Below are positions 8,590 through 19,211 of a stretch of 28,329 nt of DNA, in pieces. The notes beneath the pieces were generated by a model, which saw only the letters and a list, made by a program, of their open reading frames with translations, was not told the DNA's origin and made no database searches. The stretch's first letter is position 1; each line of letters starts with the position of its first letter. This DNA is from a virus (taxonomy: Duplodnaviria; Heunggongvirae; Uroviricota; Caudoviricetes), in IMG/VR virus record IMGVR_UViG_2778261175_000004; one strand, written 5' to 3'. A program made the position numbers and the translations under genes.

Positions 8590-8883
8590 ATGAAAAAAAT
8601 GTTGTTTTCTGCCGCTCTGGCAATGCTTATTACAGGATGTGCTCAACAGACGTTTACTGTTGGAAACAAACCGACAGCAGTAACACCAAAGGAAACCATC
8701 ACCCATCATTTCTTCGTTTCGGGAATTGGACAGGAGAAAACTGTTGATGCAGCCAAAATTTGTGGCGGCGCAGAAAATGTTGTTAAAACAGAAACCCAGC
8801 AAACATTCGTAAATGGATTTCTCGGTTTTATTACTTTAGGCATTTATACTCCGCTGGAAGCGCGTGTGTATTGCTCACAATAA
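8590..8883 (+). CDS. bor: Bor lipoprotein (serum-resistance outer-membrane lipoprotein)
   Basis: From the Met at 8590: MKKMLFSAALAMLITGCAQQTFTV...LEARVYCSQ, 97 aa with lipobox LITGC; matches recalled lambda Bor / DLP12 BorD. Oriented opposite to the late genes, as in lambda. Confidence 0.9.
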   Translation: MKKMLFSAALAMLITGCAQQTFTVGNKPTAVTPKETITHHFFVSGIGQEKTVDAAKICGGAENVVKTETQQTFVNGFLGFITLGIYTPLEARVYCSQ

Positions 8884-8914: not shown

Positions 8915-9376
8915 CTATCTGCACTGCTCATTAATATACTTCTGGGTTCCTTCCAGTTGTTTTTGCATAGTGATCAGCCTCTCTCTGAGGGTGAAATAAT
9001 CCCGTTCAGCGGTGTCTGCCAGTCGGGGGGAGGCTGCATTATCCACGCCGGAGGCGGTGGTGGCTTCACGCACTGACTGACAGACTGCTTTGATGTGCAA
9101 CCGACGACGACCAGCGGCAACATCATCACGCAGAGCATCATTTTCAGCTTTCGCATCAGCTAACTCCTTCGTGTATTTTGCATCGAGCGCAGCAACATCA
9201 CGCTGACGCATCTGCATGTCAGTAATTGCCGCGTTCGCCAGCTTCAGTTCTCTGGCATTTTTGTCGCGCTGGGCTTTGTAGGTAATGGCGTTATCACGGT
9301 AATGATTAACAGCCCATGACAGGCAGACGATGATGCAGATAACCAGAGCGGAGATAATCGCGGTTACTCTGTTCAT
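8915..9376 (-). CDS. Rz: Spanin inner-membrane subunit Rz (i-spanin)
   Basis: From the Met at 9376: [44 protein letters not shown]..., 153 aa; matches recalled lambda Rz / DLP12 RzpD. Confidence 0.9.
8974..9156 (-). CDS. Rz1: Spanin outer-membrane lipoprotein Rz1 (o-spanin), embedded in the +1 frame of Rz
   Basis: 60 aa, [60 protein letters not shown]; lipobox plus proline-rich tail; wholly inside Rz, as known for lambda. Confidence 0.85.
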
Positions 9377-9870
9377 TGCTGACCCCACAAACAGATTTCA
9401 CGCTCAATCTCACGACGAGTCATGAGACCTTTCCATTGCTTACCGCCAGCATATGTCCAGCGACGTAGCTGATCACATGCGCCTTTGATATCGCCCTGGT
9501 TTATTTTGCGAAGAAGCGTCGATGTTCTGAAATTGCCAGCACCCACGTTGTAAACGAATGAGTAAAGAGCGCCGCGCGTTGTTTCCGGTATATCGACTTT
9601 GATGTACGGGTTAATTTGTCTGGCGACAGTGGCAAGGTCTTTATTCAAGAGTGCTTTGCATTCTGCTTTGGTATACGTTTTACCGAGCATGATGTCTTTT
9701 CCTGTATGCCCGTGACATACAGTCCATACACCAACAATATCTTTGTATGGTATGTAGCTGACACCCTCCAGACCATCGTTACCACTTGAGCCAGTGATTA
9801 ACACTGATGCTATAGCAATTGCTCCGCCACCAATAGCAGCAGCAACGGCTTTTCGTAATGATGGAGGCAT
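9373..9870 (-). CDS. R: SAR (signal-anchor-release) endolysin, phage 21 R / DLP12 RrrD type lysozyme
   Basis: 165 aa, [57 protein letters not shown]...; N-terminal Gly/Ala-rich SAR domain; matches recalled RrrD. Confidence 0.9.
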
Positions 9871-10085
9871 TATTCACCTCTCGCAGCCTTGCGCTTATCT
9901 TCTTTAATCTTGAAATAAAGGTTTGTCAGGTACGTCAGCAAGCCAAATACCAAGCTACCCAGCACACCTATTGCTGCCCACTGTGAGGGCGTGACTTTAT
10001 CGAGCAGCTGTAAAAACCAGTAGCCAGCACTGCCTGCGGAGGTGCCGTAGGCAATGCCCGTTGTTAACTTATCCATGGATTTCAT
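9870..10085 (-). CDS. S: Pinholin, S21 / EssD type, with dual-start motif
   Basis: 71 aa, [31 protein letters not shown]...[13 protein letters not shown]; Met1 and Met4 give the holin/antiholin dual start; matches recalled S21/EssD. Confidence 0.9.
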
Positions 10086-10180: not shown

Positions 10181-10211
10181 AAAAAGAAAAACGCCAGCGA
10201 TTATTCTGGCG
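10181..10211 (-). terminator. Putative rho-independent terminator downstream of the AraC-family gene, upstream of the holin
   Basis: On the minus strand: CGCCAG-AATAATCG-CTGGCG followed by TTTTTCTTTTT (forward 10192-10211 stem-loop, A-run 10181-10191). Confidence 0.45.
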
Positions 10212-10273
10212 TAGCTGAAAGCATCATACAATTATCAAATACGAAAATTACAAAATCATTAAAACGCATCACG

Positions 10274-11005
10274 TTACATCATGTCTTTTTCTAAAAAAAG
10301 TCTTGATGAATATTGATGGGGAGGAACACCAAAATATCTTCTGAAAACACTCACAAAATATGACGTGTTTTCATAACCGCATATCTCAGCAACTTTTCCA
10401 ACAGAATATAAATTGTAGCTTAATAACCTTTCCGCCATCACCATTCGCTCTTCAAGAATTAACTTACTAAATGATAAGCCTTCGTGCTTTAATTTTCTTT
10501 TTAACAGACTTTCACTCAGATACAGTCTTGAAGATATATCACAAAGTCTCCATGCTGCAGATATATCCGTGTGAATAATAGCCTTAACTTTACTTCCTAA
10601 ACTATTAAGACATCCAAATAAAAAACTTTGCACTATTTTCTCTGAAGATAAGATAGCAAGACATGCAAGTGATATTTGATTTCTAACAAAATCCACAGTT
10701 CTGCCATCACAATTCAAGCATGCAATCAAGTTCTTTAACAATGAAAAATCTTCACATTCCACCATCAAGTATGCCGGATAAAACCTTCTTACAGAAAAAG
10801 GTGAGAGTGTGTTGCTTTTAAAGAAATCATTAACTGTTTTCTCTTCAACATCTACGATCATTACATGATCTATATTTGATGAAAAAAAATCTTTTAAATT
10901 GTAATCAATGAGAACAGCACTTCCTTTTTTAAACAAAATATCTTCTTTACCAATTCGGACATCAAACGAGTTCAACACCAAAATGATAGAACATATGTAT
11001 GGCAT
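10274..11005 (-). CDS. AraC-family transcriptional regulator (AppY-like), AT-rich cargo gene
   Basis: C-terminal AraC helix-turn-helix region (...KVAEICGYENTSYFVSVFRRYFGVPPHQY). N-terminus MPYICSIILVLNSFDV resembles recalled AppY MDYVCSVVFICQSFDL. ATG at 11005 has an AGGTGG ribosome-binding site; the track ORF begins 3 codons upstream at a GTG. Low GC relative to flanking phage genes. Confidence 0.8.
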   Translation of the reverse strand: MPYICSIILVLNSFDVRIGKEDILFKKGSAVLIDYNLKDFFSSNIDHVMIVDVEEKTVNDFFKSNTLSPFSVRRFYPAYLMVECEDFSLLKNLIACLNCDGRTVDFVRNQISLACLAILSSEKIVQSFLFGCLNSLGSKVKAIIHTDISAAWRLCDISSRLYLSESLLKRKLKHEGLSFSKLILEERMVMAERLLSYNLYSVGKVAEICGYENTSYFVSVFRRYFGVPPHQYSSRLFLEKDMM

Positions 11006-11356
11006 ATTATCCACCTGATATCATTGGGGTTACACCAGGTAAGTATAGGTGGAAAATCAATATTCGCCAGTTCAACAATAAGGAAAATCTCATTGCATCA
11101 CAAGTATAAAATTATGTATTTAACTCACAAAGACAAATTATTAAACCAATCTGTTATATTATATATAGCTGCGTGGAATCATAATATTATATATTTTGAC
11201 TGGCATGTTTACCAACTTTAAGTTGCATCTCAATGGTTTCTTCAGCGTAAACAGAGTTTTTATACAAACTGACACTCTGGGTATCATAGTGTAGTTTTTA
11301 CGATTGTAAATATCCTGCATGCAGGAACTCATCCTTTTGGATGATATCGCATACAA

Positions 11357-12316
11357 TTAATTTACCATCAGTCTTAGAGCCAGTTCGTCCGGATAGGGAT
11401 CGAAGTAATTCTGTGTAAGCAAGTAATCATTAGGATACTCACCCAGATAATGCTTCAGCAGAGTCAACGGCGCAAGAAGAGGTAATGTGCCAGAACGATA
11501 GTTAAGTATAACCTCGCTCAACTCTTTACGCTGGCGTGTACTTAAGTAGTTACTAAAATACCCCTGTATATGCATCAGCACATTCGTGTGATTTTTACGT
11601 GATGCAGGTTTTCTGAGAATCGCCATCAGCTTATCACGATACACCTCAAAGTATGATTCAAGGTCCGCCCACTCGTGTATTGCAGCCACAAATGGTCCCA
11701 TATCTTTATAGCCTGCCTGACTATGCGCCAACAACTGAAGCTTATAACGACTATGAAAAGCTAATAACTCTCTTCTTGATAATTTCTCCTTGTAAAGGTG
11801 ATTGAGCTCATGCAAAGCAAAAACTCTTTCAACAAAATTCTCACGAAGCACTGGATCATGTAATCGCCCATCCTCTTCAACCGGTAGCCAGGAAAACTTT
11901 TCCATCAAAGTGCTCGTAAATAGTCCCACTCCATCTTTACGACCTCGATTACCATTTTCATCATAGACACGCACGCGCTCCATGCCACAGCTGGGAGATT
12001 TAGCACAAACCACAAACCCCGATACATCCTTTAATTTGTCCATATAAGAACGACTAAACTCTGTCATTCTCTCTGTCACATCCTCATTCTGGTCGTGGCT
12101 GAAACACATCCGTATATTTCCTTGCGTCGAGCGCACAAGACGTAGAGCAGGACGCGGAACTGGCAGCCCTATAGCCATTTCCGGACATACTGGTCTGAAT
12201 GTTACCCATTCCACTAATTTGTCCATTAAAAAGTCAGCTCTTTTGTGACCACCATCAAAACGAACAGCAGAGCCGGCCAAACAACCGCTGATTCCAATCA
12301 CAGGTTTTTTTATCAT
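11357..12316 (-). CDS. TudS/RudS-like thio-nucleobase desulfidase: DUF523 [4Fe-4S] domain fused to DUF1722
   Basis: 319 aa. N-terminus MIKKPVIGISGCLAGSAVRFDGGHKR with further Cys in PVCPEM and AKSPSCGM fits the recalled DUF523 (TudS) cluster-binding pattern. The C-terminal half (about 170-319) fits the DUF1722 size and position seen in RudS-type fusions. Strong GGGGGAGA ribosome-binding site. Domain assignment is from memory, not a profile search. Confidence 0.65.
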   Translation of the reverse strand: MIKKPVIGISGCLAGSAVRFDGGHKRADFLMDKLVEWVTFRPVCPEMAIGLPVPRPALRLVRSTQGNIRMCFSHDQNEDVTERMTEFSRSYMDKLKDVSGFVVCAKSPSCGMERVRVYDENGNRGRKDGVGLFTSTLMEKFSWLPVEEDGRLHDPVLRENFVERVFALHELNHLYKEKLSRRELLAFHSRYKLQLLAHSQAGYKDMGPFVAAIHEWADLESYFEVYRDKLMAILRKPASRKNHTNVLMHIQGYFSNYLSTRQRKELSEVILNYRSGTLPLLAPLTLLKHYLGEYPNDYLLTQNYFDPYPDELALRLMVN

Positions 12317-12508
12317 ATTCTCCCCCTTGACTAATTCATTAACACATAAACTGTGTAGTGCACGGAATAAATTGCCTTTCTGGCGTCATCACTGACAATT
12401 TTTCTGTTATAGACTATTCCTAATATAGTATGAAAGTTCTTTAAGTGATCGGTCGTAATCATCTATCTTTCATACTTACTCTCAACTATCAAAAGTACAG
12501 GATTTATT

Positions 12509-13033
12509 ATGAAGTTATGGCCTGTGTTGACTGGCATTGCACTCTCTTTCACTCTTATAGCATGTAAGGCCCCGACACCACCTAAAGGTGTGCAGCCGAT
12601 TACAAATTTTGACGCCAACCGCTACCTCGGAAAATGGTATGAAATAGCTCGCCTCGAGAACCGGTTCGAACGTGGTCTGGAACAGGTCAGCGCTACCTAT
12701 GGAAAACGGAACGACGGAGGGATTCGTGTACTTAACCGTGGATACGATCCAACGAAAAATAAATGGAGCGAGAGCGAAGGTAAAGCATACTTTACTGGAG
12801 ATACTAAAACTGCAGCGTTGAAGGTTTCGTTTTTTGGCCCCTTCTATGGTGGCTATAATGTAATCAAACTGGATGATGAGTATAAGTATGCTCTTGTCAG
12901 TGGTCCGAACAGAGAATACCTATGGATTCTGGCAAGGACCCCAACTATTCCAGATAAAGTAAAAGCAGACTATGTGCGAACCGCTCAAAAGTTGGGATTC
13001 AATGTCAATGAATTATTATGGGTTAAACAATAA
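12509..13033 (+). CDS. Bacterial lipocalin Blc-type outer-membrane lipoprotein (divergent homolog)
   Basis: 174 aa with lipobox FTLIAC. Blocks NFDANRYLGKWYEIARLENRFERGLE, SEGKAYFTG, AALKVSFFGPFYGGYNVI and YLWILARTPTI closely parallel recalled E. coli Blc, but with many substitutions (roughly 60-65 percent identity by eye). Confidence 0.85.
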   Translation: MKLWPVLTGIALSFTLIACKAPTPPKGVQPITNFDANRYLGKWYEIARLENRFERGLEQVSATYGKRNDGGIRVLNRGYDPTKNKWSESEGKAYFTGDTKTAALKVSFFGPFYGGYNVIKLDDEYKYALVSGPNREYLWILARTPTIPDKVKADYVRTAQKLGFNVNELLWVKQ

Positions 13034-13061
13034 AATCCCTACCCGAAATAATACTTATTAG

Positions 13062-13088
13062 AAAAAAACCAGCCTTTGGGGAGGCTGG
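13062..13088 (-). terminator. Putative late-leader terminator (tR'-like), also placed to terminate the convergent blc-like transcript
   Basis: Stem CCAGCCT / AGGCTGG (13069-13075 / 13082-13088) with loop TTGGGG; on the minus strand it is followed by a T7 run (forward A7 at 13062-13068). Lies about 100-125 nt downstream of the Q stop, as expected for the lambda-type 6S leader transcript. Confidence 0.5.
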
Positions 13089-13188
13089 CTAAATCAGGAA
13101 ACAAGCTGTTATATGATAATAACTACGTTGCGATTCCAACATTTAAAATGTTAGACTAATGAGAATCAGACAGCAACTTTTCCTTTAA

Positions 13189-13566
13189 TTATTTCGAACA
13201 ATCAGCATCCATCTCCAATCGGAGATCCAACACCATCAGCATACCCTCCACTACGCCCTCAGCTTTCTGGAGCATCCTGCCAACCCAACAATCAGATCGC
13301 CCATGCTTACGTGCAAGCGCCATAAAAGTCATGCCGCCGACATAATAGTCCACCAATAAATCATGCAAATCGCTGTTGTTCTTTTTCAGACGGGCCATGC
13401 ACCCGCAAATGATCATCGCGTCATCGTCACAACATTGCGGGCGAGATTTTACTTTTGAAGGAATTAATCCCTTAAAACCGGCGGCAATGGACGACCAGGT
13501 CACATCTTCATGATTATTAGCCGCCCACGCTCCCCAACGCTCAAGAACCATCTGAATATCACGCAT
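13189..13566 (-). CDS. Q: Late-gene antiterminator Q (QuuD-like)
   Basis: From the Met at 13566: [60 protein letters not shown]...; Cys-rich Zn motif; matches recalled DLP12 QuuD over most of its length. Confidence 0.8.
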
Positions 13567-13648: not shown

Positions 13649-13789
13649 ACTTCATACTCCTGCTCCTGTCAGTGTTTTGGCGTAATTCTTCAGTATTCGG
13701 TAATCGGTCAAAACAGAGCCGGGGAAACGATATAAGCGCAGACGCCCCCAGCGGTGGCGAAGAAGTTCTGCCATATTAAACTCAAACAT
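13649..13789 (-). CDS. ylcG: Small nin-region protein YlcG-like (46 aa)
   Basis: Manual translation of the minus strand: MFEFNMAELLRHRWGRLRLYRFPGSVLTDYRILKNYAKTLTGAGV; ATG overlaps the rusA stop (TGATG). Below the ORF-track size cut-off. Confidence 0.5.
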
Positions 13790-14152
13790 CATTCATTCCC
13801 CATTTCGGTGATGGTCAGTTCCAGCCTCCCACCTTTGGTAACAGGCATCTTCACAACGCGGTAATCAACGACCTGAGCATCATCCAGCCAGAAACCTGCT
13901 TTAGTGAGTGCGTCAAAAGCGGCTTTTTGCAGATTATCCAGGTCACGGCTACGGCGATCCGGCATGTGGCACTCAATGCGGATTTTCACAGGCATAGCCA
14001 GGCCGATATCCAGCATTGCGTTTTTAATGATTCGGGCGACGTTATCGCGGTATGCCTGCCCCCTCTGCACTGACGTGCGTGCGCCCGCGATTATGGCGGT
14101 AATAGCGATTATTGCTCGGAGGCCAGGGTAATGTGATACTGTAGGTATTCAC
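13789..14152 (-). pseudogene. rusA: Holliday-junction resolvase rusA, disrupted by a +1 frameshift in a G5 run (C5 on the forward strand, 14059-14063)
   Basis: Minus-strand GTG at 14152 gives [31 protein letters not shown], the recalled RusA N-terminus, then hits a stop after the G5 run. The remaining RusA sequence ([19 protein letters not shown]...TITEMGNE) continues in the +1 frame as track ORF 13789..14070. Confidence 0.75.
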
Positions 14153-15271: not shown

Positions 15272-16069
15272 TTACTCTCTGGAAGCTTTTCTTATCTCTC
15301 TTGGTGTTATATTAAAACGATTATGAAATCTTTCAGTAAAACGAGAAGGACACTTATAACCATTTTCTCTGGCAATCTCGCTTATAGGTTTTACCGTCGT
15401 TTGTATAGCAGACAACGCATTATTTAACCTCACATCGTCCAGTATACTTTGGAAACTTACCCCCTCGCTTGCTAGACGGCGATGTAATGTAGAAACAGAA
15501 ATGTAGAGATATCGAGCAACCTTGTTTGCTGTCCATTTTGTGCCGGGTTCGGATAGCAGCAGGTTATAACAACGACTTATCAATGATTGTTTACTATATG
15601 ATAAAAGTAAATGATTAACATGATTCACTCCTAACGAAAGTAGAACGCCCATTGCTAAGTGCTCCTGAATTTTAGTTGAGAAGCCTCGGGAAACAGATGT
15701 TTTTAGTTGCTCCCAACAATATATTAACTCAGGATTCTGAGGTAAAAAGAAACTTGTTTTGTTACGTATTTGATCAGTTACCGTATAAAGTTTTTGGAAA
15801 CTCTCAATTAAATCAATGGGTAAGTAAAGCATTTCTGCAAGATAAAGCCCTGCTTCAGGATAATTCTCAATATAAAATTCATAACCACAAGGAAATAATA
15901 TTATTTGATTATTATCAACAGTTAAAGTATGCGTCTCCCAATTGATAACTTTCTTTCCCTGACGGATACGACACAAAGCTGGCATAAGAGGCTTAACCCT
16001 ATGAATCTCATGATGTTTATGCATCCGTATTTCTTCGATCTTTAAGTTAGTCTTACCTCTTGCCAGCAT
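15272..16069 (-). CDS. ybcM: AraC-family transcriptional regulator YbcM-like
   Basis: 265 aa; C-terminal AraC helix-turn-helix (...[42 protein letters not shown]...). Matches DLP12 YbcM in position and length. Confidence 0.8.
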
Positions 16070-16078
16070 ACTCTCACC

Positions 16079-16630
16079 CTACTTTATCTCATAAACTGGT
16101 GTTATCTCAGCGGTTGCGATTTTATTAGCATTAAGCATATAACCAACTAACGCTCCGCTGGAGTTAGAATCTACAGGAATCTTTTCAGTTTTTAGAGCCC
16201 ATACTTTAAACTGGTAATGATGTGGTTTATCTCCTTTAGGAGGACACGCGCCACCAAACCCAGCATAGCCAAAATCATTTCGGCCTTGAACAGCACCAGT
16301 CGGCAGTTTTGTTCCATCACGTCTCCCTGCATCAACGGGCAAATATGTTATTGTTGCTGGAATATTAACAACAGTCCAATGCCACCAACCACTGCCTGTA
16401 GGTGCATCTGGATCATATACAGTTACGGCAAAGCTTTTGGTACCTTCAGGAACACCAGACCAGGTTAATGAGGGCGATGTATTACCACCTTCACACCCAA
16501 ATCCAGAAAAGACATGAGACGTTGTAAGTTGCTCTCCTGTTTTTATTTCATTACTAGTGACCTGAAATGCTGCAGCCTGCGCAGAAAATGTTATGAATGC
16601 CAATACAGTTGAAACGATAAGTGTTTTCAT
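16079..16630 (-). CDS. ybcL: Periplasmic phosphatidylethanolamine-binding protein (PEBP / Raf kinase inhibitor-like) YbcL-like
   Basis: 183 aa with signal peptide MKTLIVSTVLAFITFSAQA; PEBP motifs (...YDPDAPTGSGWWHW...HHYQFKVWAL...). Confidence 0.85.
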   Translation of the reverse strand: MKTLIVSTVLAFITFSAQAAAFQVTSNEIKTGEQLTTSHVFSGFGCEGGNTSPSLTWSGVPEGTKSFAVTVYDPDAPTGSGWWHWTVVNIPATITYLPVDAGRRDGTKLPTGAVQGRNDFGYAGFGGACPPKGDKPHHYQFKVWALKTEKIPVDSNSSGALVGYMLNANKIATAEITPVYEIK

Positions 16631-16846
16631 AAAAACCTCTTTGTTATGACCTATCGTTATTTTATTTGATATTCCTTTATCTCATTATGCATAAAGGCGC
16701 AATTTTTATGCAAAAGCAATCACAATTGTACCCCCAACCCAATTATTTGCCACAATATACACAAAGCACATTGATACTATCTAAAAACTCTGCTTTATTA
16801 TTAGTAATACCTACGAAAGTCGGTGTTATTTTTTAACCTATCATTC

Positions 16847-16896
16847 AAAATACGTGACATACACCATTTTGCTCATAATAATTTGTCACGTATTTT
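16847..16896. repeat. Perfect 13-bp inverted repeat AAAATACGTGACA / TGTCACGTATTTT with a 24-bp spacer, in the ybcK-ybcL intergenic region
   Basis: Direct reading: 16847-16859 and 16884-16896 are exact reverse complements. Confidence 0.9.
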
Positions 16897-17094
16897 CAGT
16901 ATTTGAATCTGCGACCAAGAGTTCTCACCTGACAAATGATTAAGATTGTATAGCTCATTTACTACCCCAATACAGCCGTACAAAACTCGCTTGTGGGAGC
17001 AAACAAAGTAATTACCCATTAAGTTTCGTCAAAGATAATTAATTCTGTCTTGCACTTTATCACCATAGCATAACTTAAAATCCGAGATCATTAT

Positions 17095-18621
17095 TTAGAA
17101 ATAAATCTCACCATCAACCATATATTTGAGAGCACTTATCGCCTGCTGGGCGGATATTACTTTCATTAAAGGATAGTGTTTAAAAACAATGCCATTCATA
17201 AAATAAATATCACAGGTTTTATTATCCGTATTAATTATGATTTTTTCGAATGTTTTATAGGCAAGTGTACGGCATAACTCTCGTCCATTTTTACTGGTTA
17301 AGTCAATAGCATAAAAATCACTGAATGAATTTACACCTTTACTCTTCAAAGTTTTCAATGATACCGAAGCCCTTCGTAATTCCTTATCTAATAGTCTTAT
17401 TTTCTCTGCTATAGCGGTAACTTCAGGCGCGACAGACAATGCAACGATTAAATTATTAATTTTCATCTGAAGCTCAATAATTTTTAACTCTAAAGTTTCA
17501 TTAGCATCTTTCTTGTTTTCAACTGGTTGAATTTTGCTACAATTAAAAAGCAATTCATTAATGATATTATAATCAACCAAATCTCTTTTTATTGATGGCC
17601 TGTCACATCGATGTAATCTTCTCATCGGACAAACATAATAGCCATGCAAACTTCCAGATACCGCATGAACAATCATGGTATTACCACAAGCCTCACACTT
17701 CATAACTGTTCGAAGTAGATTTATTAGCATAGGATTCTTGCTACTATTGCTAATACCAAAAGGTGCCAACCGAATTTCCTGTACAGCGTAAAACAAATCA
17801 TCTGATATGACTCTGGGATAATAGCCAGCGATTTCACTTATCCCTTTCCCTCTTGCACGATATGAAGGTACGCATATACCTATCAGAGCTTTATTCGCTA
17901 ATAATTTTTCAATTACAGAAGGTCCCCATGCACTTTCTTTTCCTGAGAAATTCTTTACAGCATGATCATTTAAATACTTGGCTATTGCATTCAATGAGCG
18001 CCTTTCCATCCTGAGTTTAAAAATTAGCTCAATAGTTTTCACCCTGTCGGGGTCTGGAACAAAAGCCGTTCTTTTGTCATCTAAGGAGAGCCATCTCGGA
18101 CAAGACGCCGTCATAATCGTACCTGATTCCAGTGCATCCTGCCGTTTTTTCTTCCATGATAATTTAACCCGACTTGACTTTATCTCGCTTTCTTCATTTG
18201 CCCTTTGTGCTATAAGTATGGCTTTTATTAATGAATATGGCTCATTCAAAGAGTCAATATTATAGACTGTATTGTCGCAAAGAGTTATAACATCAATACC
18301 GTGATTCAAAATCAATTTCAGACGTTCAATCGCTTCACCGACTTTTTCTCTTGAAAGTCTGTCCAGACTTTCAACTAACAATGTAGTTCCTGGCAATATA
18401 TAACCATGCTCTATAGCATCTAAAAATTCCGAAAAAGCTCCTGATTGTGCATGCTTTCCTTTGAATGCACTTAATCCTAAATCTTCATATGTTATGGTAT
18501 CAAGATAATAATCACTATTTACCTTTAACCATTCAGCAATAAGTCTTCTCTGTCGGTTTAATGAGTCACCAGACATCTGACCTGGTGATGAAAATCGCAT
18601 ATATGCTATGGCTTTTTTCAT
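17095..18621 (-). CDS. ybcK: Large serine recombinase (resolvase/invertase-type N-terminal catalytic domain plus large C-terminal domain), YbcK-like
   Basis: 508 aa. N-terminus MKKAIAYMRFSSPGQMSGDSLNRQRR... has the serine-recombinase catalytic motif (Y-x-R-x-S-S). C-terminal Cys cluster (CEACGNTMIVH...YYVCPMRRLHRC) is typical of large serine recombinases. Confidence 0.85.
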   Translation of the reverse strand: MKKAIAYMRFSSPGQMSGDSLNRQRRLIAEWLKVNSDYYLDTITYEDLGLSAFKGKHAQSGAFSEFLDAIEHGYILPGTTLLVESLDRLSREKVGEAIERLKLILNHGIDVITLCDNTVYNIDSLNEPYSLIKAILIAQRANEESEIKSSRVKLSWKKKRQDALESGTIMTASCPRWLSLDDKRTAFVPDPDRVKTIELIFKLRMERRSLNAIAKYLNDHAVKNFSGKESAWGPSVIEKLLANKALIGICVPSYRARGKGISEIAGYYPRVISDDLFYAVQEIRLAPFGISNSSKNPMLINLLRTVMKCEACGNTMIVHAVSGSLHGYYVCPMRRLHRCDRPSIKRDLVDYNIINELLFNCSKIQPVENKKDANETLELKIIELQMKINNLIVALSVAPEVTAIAEKIRLLDKELRRASVSLKTLKSKGVNSFSDFYAIDLTSKNGRELCRTLAYKTFEKIIINTDNKTCDIYFMNGIVFKHYPLMKVISAQQAISALKYMVDGEIYF

Positions 18622-18800
18622 GGTGACACCTGCTAACGTATGCTTTTATAAACCTTAGTGGTGGGATATAATTTTTGTTTAATTTTTATTTAAAAAGACA
18701 ATTAAGGTCACATTATCTTGAATATACAACAATAATCGTATTGCAATTTTCTTACGCCATAATCTTGAAAGCACAAAAGAATACATAAAAAATAAAGACA

Positions 18801-18845
18801 TTAACAAAAAGCATAAAACGAGGCTCATATAAATATAAGAGCCTC
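18801..18845 (-). terminator. Putative terminator downstream of emrE
   Basis: Stem GAGGCTC / GAGCCTC (18820-18826 / 18839-18845) with a 12-nt AT loop, followed on the minus strand by GTTTTATGCTTTTTG. The long loop makes this only moderately convincing. Confidence 0.35.
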
Positions 18846-18875
18846 CATATTTTAGTCGTTTAGAAACAAATTATT

Positions 18876-19211
18876 TTAATGTGGTGTGCTTCGTGACAAT
18901 AAATTAATAACCAACACACCGGCACAAATCAACATCATGCCTATAATAGCTGGCAGGTCCAGCCGTTGGTCGAAAAGTCCCCATGACAGTAAGCTAATCA
19001 GGACAATACCGACTCCTGACCAGATAGCATAAGCAATCCCTGTAGGAATATAAGCCAGCGTCTGAGCTAATAACCAGAATGATGCACAATAACAAATAAT
19101 TGTACCAACAGATGGCCATAACCGTGTAAAACCTTCTGAAAACTTCATTAAGGTTGTACCAATGACCTCTGCAAGTATTGCACCACCAAGATAAATATAA
19201 GGGTTCATAGC
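18876..19211 (-). CDS. emrE: Small multidrug resistance efflux transporter EmrE
   Basis: From the internal Met: MNPYIYLGGAILAEVIGTTLMKFSEGFTRLWPSVGTIICYCASFWLLAQTLAYIPTGIAYAIWSGVGIVLISLLSWG..., 110 aa; matches recalled E. coli EmrE. Confidence 0.95.
   Translation of the reverse strand, partial: AMNPYIYLGGAILAEVIGTTLMKFSEGFTRLWPSVGTIICYCASFWLLAQTLAYIPTGIAYAIWSGVGIVLISLLSWGLFDQRLDLPAIIGMMLICAGVLVINLLSRSTPH

Follow-up and report, generated by a model that had tools for sequence, protein, structure and literature searches.

A RudS-type tRNA 4-thiouridine desulfidase predicted as cargo of a DLP12/lambda-like Escherichia coli prophage

In the stretch of viral DNA analysed here (28,329 nucleotides, hereafter called the window), a gene situated between the antiterminator gene Q and the holin gene is very probably best explained as coding for a RudS-type desulfidase of tRNA 4-thiouridine (s4U8) that travels as cargo with a DLP12/lambda-like E. 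coli prophage. The identification itself is already known, as work published in 2024 covers the enzyme family with its chemistry as well as a phage ortholog, 93% identical, that comes from the same cassette. In the open-access literature, no paper was found on the prophage context of rudS, its prevalence in E. coli or its link to Blc. Three modest points are apparently not in the literature. First, matches to the prophage rudS gene were present in 1136 of 5426 complete E. coli genomes (~21%), which matters for UVA/s4U physiology across strains. Second, rudS was accompanied throughout by a gene for a Blc lipocalin in the Q-to-holin slot, and it is under strong purifying selection. Third, the names given to the family in PHROGs and RefSeq could be improved.

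Domains and conserved residues of the protein

The original prediction, made from the letters of the DNA, had described a 319-aa open reading frame with a DUF523-like N-terminal half, three cysteines in defined contexts and a DUF1722-sized C-terminal half, and had likened this architecture to that of RudS. The reading frame was recovered at exactly 11357-12316. Its strand, left unstated in the prediction, is the minus one; the frame starts with the ATG at 12316 and ends, stop codon included, at 11357. The gene and its two domains are as follows:

11357-12316, minus strand: rudS, TudS-DUF1722 fusion, predicted tRNA 4-thiouridine desulfidase (open reading frame, Pfam, 93% identity to the assayed RudS_vir, dN/dS 0.10)
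11870-12298, minus strand: TudS/DUF523 catalytic domain, aa 7-149 (Pfam, residue invariance, HMMER and Foldseek comparison with TudS)
11390-11743, minus strand: DUF1722 domain, aa 192-309, proposed tRNA anticodon-arm binding module (Pfam, identity to YbgA)

Profile search placed both halves as foreseen (E about 1e-40 each). Residues 7-149 matched PF04463 (2-thiour_desulf, formerly DUF523; E = 3.1e-40, 137.9 bits for a cutoff of 34.7), and residues 192-309 matched PF08349 (DUF1722; E = 1.9e-40, 138.2 bits for a cutoff of 22.5) over the entire profile (positions 1-117 of 117). Both scores are far beyond chance. The three cysteines were found in their predicted contexts, GISGC at aa 8-12 (C12), PVCPEM at aa 42-47 (C44) and SPSCGM at aa 107-112 (C110). 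When 30 homologues of 70-99% identity were aligned, C12, C44 and C110 proved invariant, as were E46, R55, S107 and S109.

The comparison with TudS structures gave the same picture. By HMMER, the N-terminal 60 residues of the prophage protein could be aligned to TudS 6Z92, a segment covering C12, C44, E46 and R55 (C...CPE...PRP). The AlphaFold2 model of the whole protein was of moderate confidence only (pLDDT 71, pTM 0.73), the loop formed by aa 13-29 falling below pLDDT 50. In a Foldseek search with this model, TudS structures were the sole significant matches in the PDB; the best-described one, 6Z96, was retrieved with a probability of 1.00, a target-normalised TM-score of 0.64 and 27% identity over 150 columns.

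TudS (PDB 6Z92, 6Z96) and the prophage protein therefore have in common the fold and the [4Fe-4S] ligand and catalytic motifs (C...CPE...PRP...SPSC). However, TudS is only ~27% identical, lacks DUF1722, has free thiouracil and 4-thio-UMP as its substrates and rescues uracil auxotrophs well. The prophage protein is not a stand-alone TudS, as it is a two-domain fusion of 319 aa and not a single domain of ~150-170 aa. Nor is it a YbgA equivalog. Only aa 160-315 matched the NCBIfam equivalog PRK10167, which describes the 169-aa stand-alone protein, and the score of 190.8 bits was below the cutoff of 237. The C-terminal half is 49% identical over 152 aa to YbgA of E. coli K-12 (b0707), a stand-alone DUF1722 protein; YbgA differs in having no TudS domain, and cells expressing it grew on thiouracils as did the empty-vector control (PMC11417400). 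The RefSeq label 'YbgA family protein' thus understates the protein.

All the sequence-level features that define the RudS family were present, and by these the protein belongs to it. The predicted identity of the enzyme draws in addition on the assay of a 93%-identical ortholog, gp66 of Escherichia phage 1H12 (H3V29_gp66), with which 298 of 319 residues are shared in a gapless alignment. None of the 21 differences concerns C12, C44, E46, R55, S107, S109 or C110. Domains, residues and this identity together uphold the RudS assignment of the original prediction.

A mechanism can be proposed from TudS crystallography and from the mutagenesis of RudS_KT, the Pseudomonas putida enzyme (PP_0741), which has the same TudS-DUF1722 architecture and serves as the mechanistic reference. 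RudS_KT desulfidates tRNA s4U in vitro, and mutation of its residues C17, C49, E51, R60, S111, S113 or C114 abolishes activity. When mapped by motif offset, C17/C49/C114/E51/R60/S111/S113 correspond to C12/C44/C110/E46/R55/S107/S109 of the prophage protein. In DUF1722, S243 and R244 of RudS_KT correspond, also by motif offset and not by alignment, to S239 and R240, which are invariant in the 30 homologues. The RudS_KT loop R24-Y25-N26-G27 reads R19-F20-D21-G22 here. C12, C44 and C110 are thus the predicted ligands of a [4Fe-4S] cluster with one free iron; E46, S107 and S109 are predicted to be catalytic and R55 orienting, these roles being carried over from RudS_KT. By analogy, the three cysteines would hold the cluster while the fourth iron would bind the s4U sulfur. 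With R55, S107 and S109 keeping it in position, E46 would then activate a water molecule and the sulfur would be displaced, leaving uridine. DUF1722, as modelled, may dock on the anticodon arm, so that tRNA would be preferred over free thiouracil.

The cassette between Q and holin and its proposed expression

The window comes from a DLP12/lambda-like E. coli prophage and runs from the head and tail genes through the integrase gene. The same prophage carries cargo of the DLP12 type in its nin region (ybcK, ybcL, ybcM and emrE). No Rfam hit at the gathering threshold and no tRNA gene was found in the whole window. Around rudS, the order is Q, a tR'-like hairpin, blc on the opposite strand, rudS, a gene for an AraC-like regulator, a terminator, holin, lysozyme and Rz/Rz1:

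13189-13566, minus strand: Q antiterminator (Pfam Phage_antitermQ, E = 2.5e-51; annotation)
13057-13090, minus strand: tR'-like intrinsic terminator, 9-bp GC-rich stem followed by T7, ~100 nt downstream of Q (terminator scan)
12509-13033, plus strand: blc-like outer-membrane lipocalin lipoprotein (Pfam Lipocalin_2, E = 7e-44; NCBIfam Blc subfamily, 316 bits for a cutoff of 267)
12317-12508, no strand: divergent blc-rudS intergenic region, 192 bp (alignment to 1H12, promoter scan)
12319-12326, minus strand: Shine-Dalgarno sequence of rudS, GGGGGAGA, ending 2 nt before the ATG (read from the sequence)
10274-11005, minus strand: AraC-family regulator, YdeO/GadX-like, ~30% GC (Pfam HTH_18 and HTH_AraC; annotated start)
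10181-10212, minus strand: intrinsic terminator between the AraC-like gene and holin, close to the latter (terminator scan)
9870-10085, minus strand: holin of the EssD/P21 S type, the first lysis gene past the cassette (Pfam Phage_holin_2_1, E = 2e-35)
9373-9870, minus strand: lysozyme (Pfam/annotation)
8915-9388, minus strand: Rz (Pfam/annotation)

Since rudS has the same orientation as Q, holin, lysozyme and Rz (all minus), it is situated on the path of late transcription, whereas blc is on the opposite strand. The late-operon placement given in the original prediction is therefore geometrically right, and the strong Shine-Dalgarno sequence that it had noted upstream of rudS was found at 12319-12326 on the minus strand. 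The latter is not kept in the 1H12 allele, which has GGGGTAGG.

The cassette has the look of cargo, as it is AT-rich and lies between terminators that are exactly conserved across diverged alleles, in the slot occupied by nmpC in K-12. The AraC-like gene has a GC content of ~30%, rudS and blc one of ~43% (30-45% over the cassette), for a backbone of ~50%. The hairpin at 13057-13090 has a folding energy of -14.9 kcal/mol (z = -3.6) and recurs exactly in 1H12 and in two further prophage backbones; the terminator at 10181-10212 has a folding energy of -12.1 kcal/mol (z = -2.35) and exact copies in 1H12 and L007. In K-12 DLP12, nmpC fills the interval between Q and holin (essD). Such lambdoid cargo genes ('morons') resemble the present cassette in the Q/tR'-to-holin position, the atypical GC content and the flanking terminators; the cargo of DLP12 is a porin gene, nmpC, whereas here it consists of three genes, blc, rudS and the AraC-like gene. 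Two traits of morons were observed, a foreign base composition and a slot of variable content that lies between conserved phage genes. As to a third, a promoter together with a terminator of the cassette's own, a terminator is present and exactly conserved, and the promoter-like matches are weak and no more frequent than in shuffled sequence.

An anti-phage defence role was rejected, as PADLOC gave no defence hits for rudS, blc, the AraC-like gene, ybcK, ybcL or ybcM. For the AraC-like gene, the best NCBIfam match was YdeO, below its cutoff. Orthology of this gene to PatE, PsrA or PsrB of EHEC was not supported, only membership of the same broad YdeO/GadX-like group: proteins from O157-derived phage records, on which the comparison was made, matched it at just 30-41%, the 41% match being partial in length.

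The blc-rudS spacer was compared with that of 1H12, to which it is 89.6% identical (20 mismatches). The ~140 nt nearest to blc are better conserved than the ~55 nt nearest to rudS, which include the ribosome-binding site and are poorly conserved. Because blc is oriented so that it cannot be expressed from pR', it needs a promoter of its own, located in the 192-bp spacer that it has in common with rudS. The same spacer probably holds a rudS promoter as well. No convincing one was found upstream of rudS, the best match being 9/12 and promoter-like hits being as frequent as expected from shuffled sequence; a weak promoter-like match, TTGAGA-16-GATGAT, lies at 12485-12458. The search for operators shared between the intergenic regions gave nothing more than short matches in two copies, as are usual in AT-rich DNA.

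We infer from this layout that blc, rudS and the AraC-like regulator would form a self-contained stress-tolerance cassette, expressed in the lysogen from promoters of its own. After induction, Q-antiterminated read-through from pR' would transcribe it too: the Q-modified polymerase would pass the tR'-like hairpin, run antisense over blc, then through rudS and the AraC-like gene and finally into the lysis genes. The likely benefit would be a lower content of the photosensitiser s4U in tRNA before UVA exposure, which would shorten the near-UV growth delay in a host whose K-12-type chromosome keeps only YbgA. A near-UV role had been proposed for RudS before the original prediction; the published test was done with RudS_KT of P. 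putida, not with the phage enzyme.

Conversely, the original prediction had suggested a phage-timed function, and this is speculation. On such an account, rudS expression would depend almost wholly on pR' with Q antitermination, to the benefit of the phage; for example, s4U would be erased so that late translation escapes UVA-induced tRNA crosslinking or the stringent response when induction is triggered by sunlight. In line with this, rudS lies between Q and holin, shares their strand and comes after a tR'-like terminator through which a polymerase modified by Q would pass; no strong rudS promoter was found in the search, and rudS occurs in genomes deposited as phages, 1H12 and IdasGreatGrand among them. 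Nevertheless, we consider an exclusively late function rather unlikely. An enzyme made after irradiation would presumably protect little: RudS removes the sulfur of s4U and can thereby keep UVA crosslinks from forming in tRNA, and we found no report of the reversal of an existing s4U8-C13 crosslink, which favours the cargo reading. Furthermore, the opposite-strand blc gene needs its own promoter, and a conserved terminator separates the cassette from holin. This terminator would be needed only if the cassette is transcribed while the lysis genes must stay off, a layout that fits expression in the lysogen. Against cargo expressed in the lysogen stand the lack of a convincing rudS promoter and the poor conservation of the rudS-proximal 55 nt; the timing of rudS expression is something that we infer only. 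No evidence was found for the thio-nucleotide-dependent host response that the original prediction had also put forward.

Under the cargo reading, one may tentatively go further and regard blc-rudS(-AraC) as a lysogenic-conversion module for sunlight or near-UV tolerance. If this were true, the module would restore an s4U 'eraser' to about one in five E. coli strains, the K-12-type chromosome having none (YbgA only), and strains would come to differ in how long UVA delays their growth, in their stringent response and in the kinetics of solar disinfection. In addition, pR' read-through after induction might strip s4U from host tRNA and so sustain late translation.

RudS_vir and the possible substrates of the phage lineage

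The 1H12 protein is listed as 'RudS_vir', with Cys12/44/110, in Table 1 of Jamontas et al. 2024 (NAR; PMC11417400). It resembles the prophage protein in length (319 aa, 93% identity), in Cys12/44/110 and in its Q-blc-rudS-AraC-like-holin cassette. It differs by 21 mostly conservative substitutions, by its ribosome-binding site and by its backbone, which is that of 1H12 whereas the one here is DLP12-like; the allele that was assayed is RudS_vir. When its gene was synthesised and expressed in E. coli, tRNA 4-thiouridine was lowered, as it was with every RudS variant tested (PMC11417400). For RudS_ST of Salmonella (ORF319/STM1389), whose cysteines are likewise given as Cys12/44/110, the drop in s4U was 18-fold (PMC11417400). 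A UVA phenotype is known only for RudS_KT of P. putida under overexpression: when the enzyme was overexpressed before irradiation, the growth delay fell from ~105 to ~60 min. The gene of RudS_KT is part of an operon on the chromosome that responds to light and includes phrB and a gene for a MerR/LitR regulator, while the prophage gene stands beside an AraC-type regulator.

In the same study, the activity of RudS_vir on tRNA was comparatively low despite good levels of soluble protein, and among the RudS variants it gave the shortest lag on 4-thiouracil in the rescue of a uracil auxotroph (PMC11417400). From these two results, tRNA may not be the sole substrate of RudS_vir. One could then suppose that the phage-lineage enzyme acts mainly in salvage and detoxification, in the manner of TudS, on 4-thiouracil or 4-thio-UMP set free as tRNA is turned over; the recycling of 4-thio-UMP by TudS enzymes has been reported (PMC10611767). 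The phage clade also has 11 substitutions at positions that are invariant or nearly so in 28 non-phage enterobacterial homologues, including T14A beside the ligand C12. This reading is nonetheless improbable. No RudS variant, RudS_vir included, supported growth as TudS did (PMC11417400), and RudS_vir did lower tRNA s4U. Moreover, DUF1722, a domain that would not be needed for salvage alone, is kept at full length under purifying selection with S239 and R240 invariant, which argues against salvage as the only role. As an extension of the tRNA desulfidase reading, the substitutions of the phage clade and the better use of 4-thiouracil by RudS_vir could mark a broadened substrate range.

Distribution, selection and relatives

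The cassette was found in twelve deposited phage genomes, and the lambdoid backbones that carry it are of at least three kinds (DLP12-like, Qin-like and 1H12/lambda-like). At least 80 IMG/VR loci, from E. coli lambdoid phages, have copies 98-100% identical to the present rudS. Among the matches listed, blc adjoined rudS in all 80 viral contigs, and the full order Q-blc-rudS-AraC-holin-lysozyme was present in 68 of them; most of the others end at a contig edge, and five were without an AraC-like gene. The blc-rudS gap measured by tblastn was constant (193) in 71 of 71 IMG/VR contigs among the matches listed.

In the complete E. coli genomes, nearly all copies of rudS were chromosomal. Their identities fell into three bands: at least 99%, 95-99% (~98% in the rows sampled) and 90-95% (~92% in the rows sampled). 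A wider search with the 3.1-kb cassette gave similar figures. The RudS paper states that E. coli has no TudS or RudS homologues (PMC11417400). This fits K-12, where only a DUF1722 remnant, YbgA, was found, upstream of phr; it does not fit about a fifth of the sequenced strains.

Selection was estimated from the divergence between the present alleles and those of 1H12. For rudS, dS was 0.30 and dN/dS 0.10, the latter ratio being 0.08 for holin, 0.08 for endolysin and 0.27 for the AraC-like gene. Thus, rudS is under purifying selection, as are holin and endolysin, and the AraC-like gene evolves faster, as its ratio indicates. It is hardly credible, then, that rudS is inert and just rides along with the Q-holin module without doing anything at present, in spite of its AT-rich, foreign-looking sequence, of the IS insertions or truncated copies seen in some genomes and of the 'unknown function' attached to its family: the dN/dS of 0.10 was obtained at a dS of 0.30, in 1064 of the 1136 matching E. 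coli genomes at least 80% of the gene is kept, the catalytic residues are all intact and activity in vivo is known for the allele of 93% identity. In PHROGs, the family is phrog_3275 (PHROG 3275), and both its 'unknown function' label and the RefSeq 'YbgA family protein' label could be upgraded in prophage annotation.

Outside phages, the nearest relatives are found on the chromosomes of Citrobacter, Kluyvera, Enterobacter, Serratia and Pectobacterium, with 70-77% identity. The chromosomal enterobacterial RudS proteins compared (Citrobacter, Enterobacter, Serratia and the Salmonella homologue P0030) all have 319 aa and are 70-77% identical to the prophage RudS. The phage clade falls outside the group formed by the enterobacterial proteins sampled: it is 70-75% identical to them, and they are 80-86% identical among themselves.

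In Citrobacter braakii, rudS is the last gene of a SnoaL/SDR/amine-oxidase/DUF1365/CFA-synthase/DUF2878/DUF3833 cluster, and none of these neighbours is present in the prophage. Derivation of the prophage Blc from the chromosomal rudS cluster was not supported, as the 175-aa neighbour in Citrobacter has no similarity to Blc. No donor locus for the cassette was found in the Citrobacter cluster or the enterobacterial relatives compared. The phage-type allele was absent from 64 species-representative loci, with the exception of two contigs of a 'Candidatus Nanosynbacter' metagenome-assembled genome, which are contamination.

Variation of the Q-to-holin slot in other E. coli

In the DLP12 prophage of K-12 (NC_000913.3 574529-576825), the same Q-to-essD slot is occupied by the porin gene nmpC, which is disrupted by IS5. 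Downstream of quuD, the K-12 and window sequences are unrelated. In some E. coli genomes, IS3 or IS911 insertions were found inside the 3.1-kb region of the blc-rudS-AraC cassette (e.g. NZ_CP042878.1 2974595-2979031). Furthermore, the AraC-like gene was not recognisable in 5 of the 80 IMG/VR contigs among the matches listed, the holin gene being present.

Within the cassette, conservation is lowest in the spacer between rudS and this AraC-like gene (window 11006-11356): when aligned with that of Escherichia phage 1H12, which carries the same cassette, the spacer showed 76% identity and 47 gap columns. Its length also differs between viral contigs, the tblastn gaps ranging from 353 to 473 among the matches listed. 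Two of the better promoter-like matches, scoring 10/12, lie in this spacer, upstream of the AraC-like gene.

A 20-nt direct repeat, identical at 17 of 20 positions, was observed at window 11144-11163 and 13099-13118; read on the minus strand, the copies are TATAATATAACAGATTGGTT and TATCATATAACAGCTTGTTT. One copy is located upstream of the AraC-like gene and the other between the putative late promoter pR' and the tR'-like hairpin, an intrinsic terminator. Such a repeat could arise by chance in AT-rich DNA.

rudS and its relatives outside this prophage

RudS of the chromosomal type (about 73% identical) is found together with DUF3833 on many plasmids of Klebsiella, Enterobacter and Escherichia. 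On the IncR plasmid NZ_CP114981.1, chromosomal-type rudS adjoins lacIZY and a porin gene, and the region is flanked by IS5 copies. Plasmid carriage is a second mobile route for rudS.

In K-12, the H-repeat transposase gene ybfD is immediately followed downstream by the stand-alone DUF1722 gene ybgA (NC_000913.3 738092-739510). This adjacency is consistent with a loss of the TudS half through rearrangement, which is a speculation.

Among E. coli protein records, one of 403 aa has a GGDEF domain (PF00990) fused to RudS, the RudS portion being 99% identical over 92% of the query; a frameshift, a rearrangement or an artefact of assembly is the probable cause. Two short contigs (JARKOR010000151.1 and JARKOR010000135.1) from a MAG assigned to 'Candidatus Nanosynbacter' also encode the RudS of the E. 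coli prophage, at 94-100% identity; this is almost certainly binning contamination.

Other genes of the window

Further features were as follows.

8590-8883, plus strand: gene for a Bor/Iss-type serum-resistance lipoprotein (Pfam Lambda_Bor, E=4e-30; 'iss' in the annotation of the matching genome)
13789-14152, minus strand: rusA, frameshifted
15272-19208, minus strand: DLP12-type cargo of the nin region (ybcM, ybcL, ybcK, emrE)

The Bor/Iss-type gene, a second cargo gene, lies just past Rz/Rz1 on the downstream side and runs in the opposite orientation. In the nin region, ybcM encodes a second AraC-family regulator of the window (its ExsA_N match is weak), ybcL a PEBP-family protein, ybcK a large serine recombinase of 508 aa and emrE an SMR efflux pump; no PADLOC defence model matched this nin-region cargo. 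In rusA, the frame changes after about 30 codons, and the annotation of NZ_CP026723 flags the gene as 'frameshifted'.
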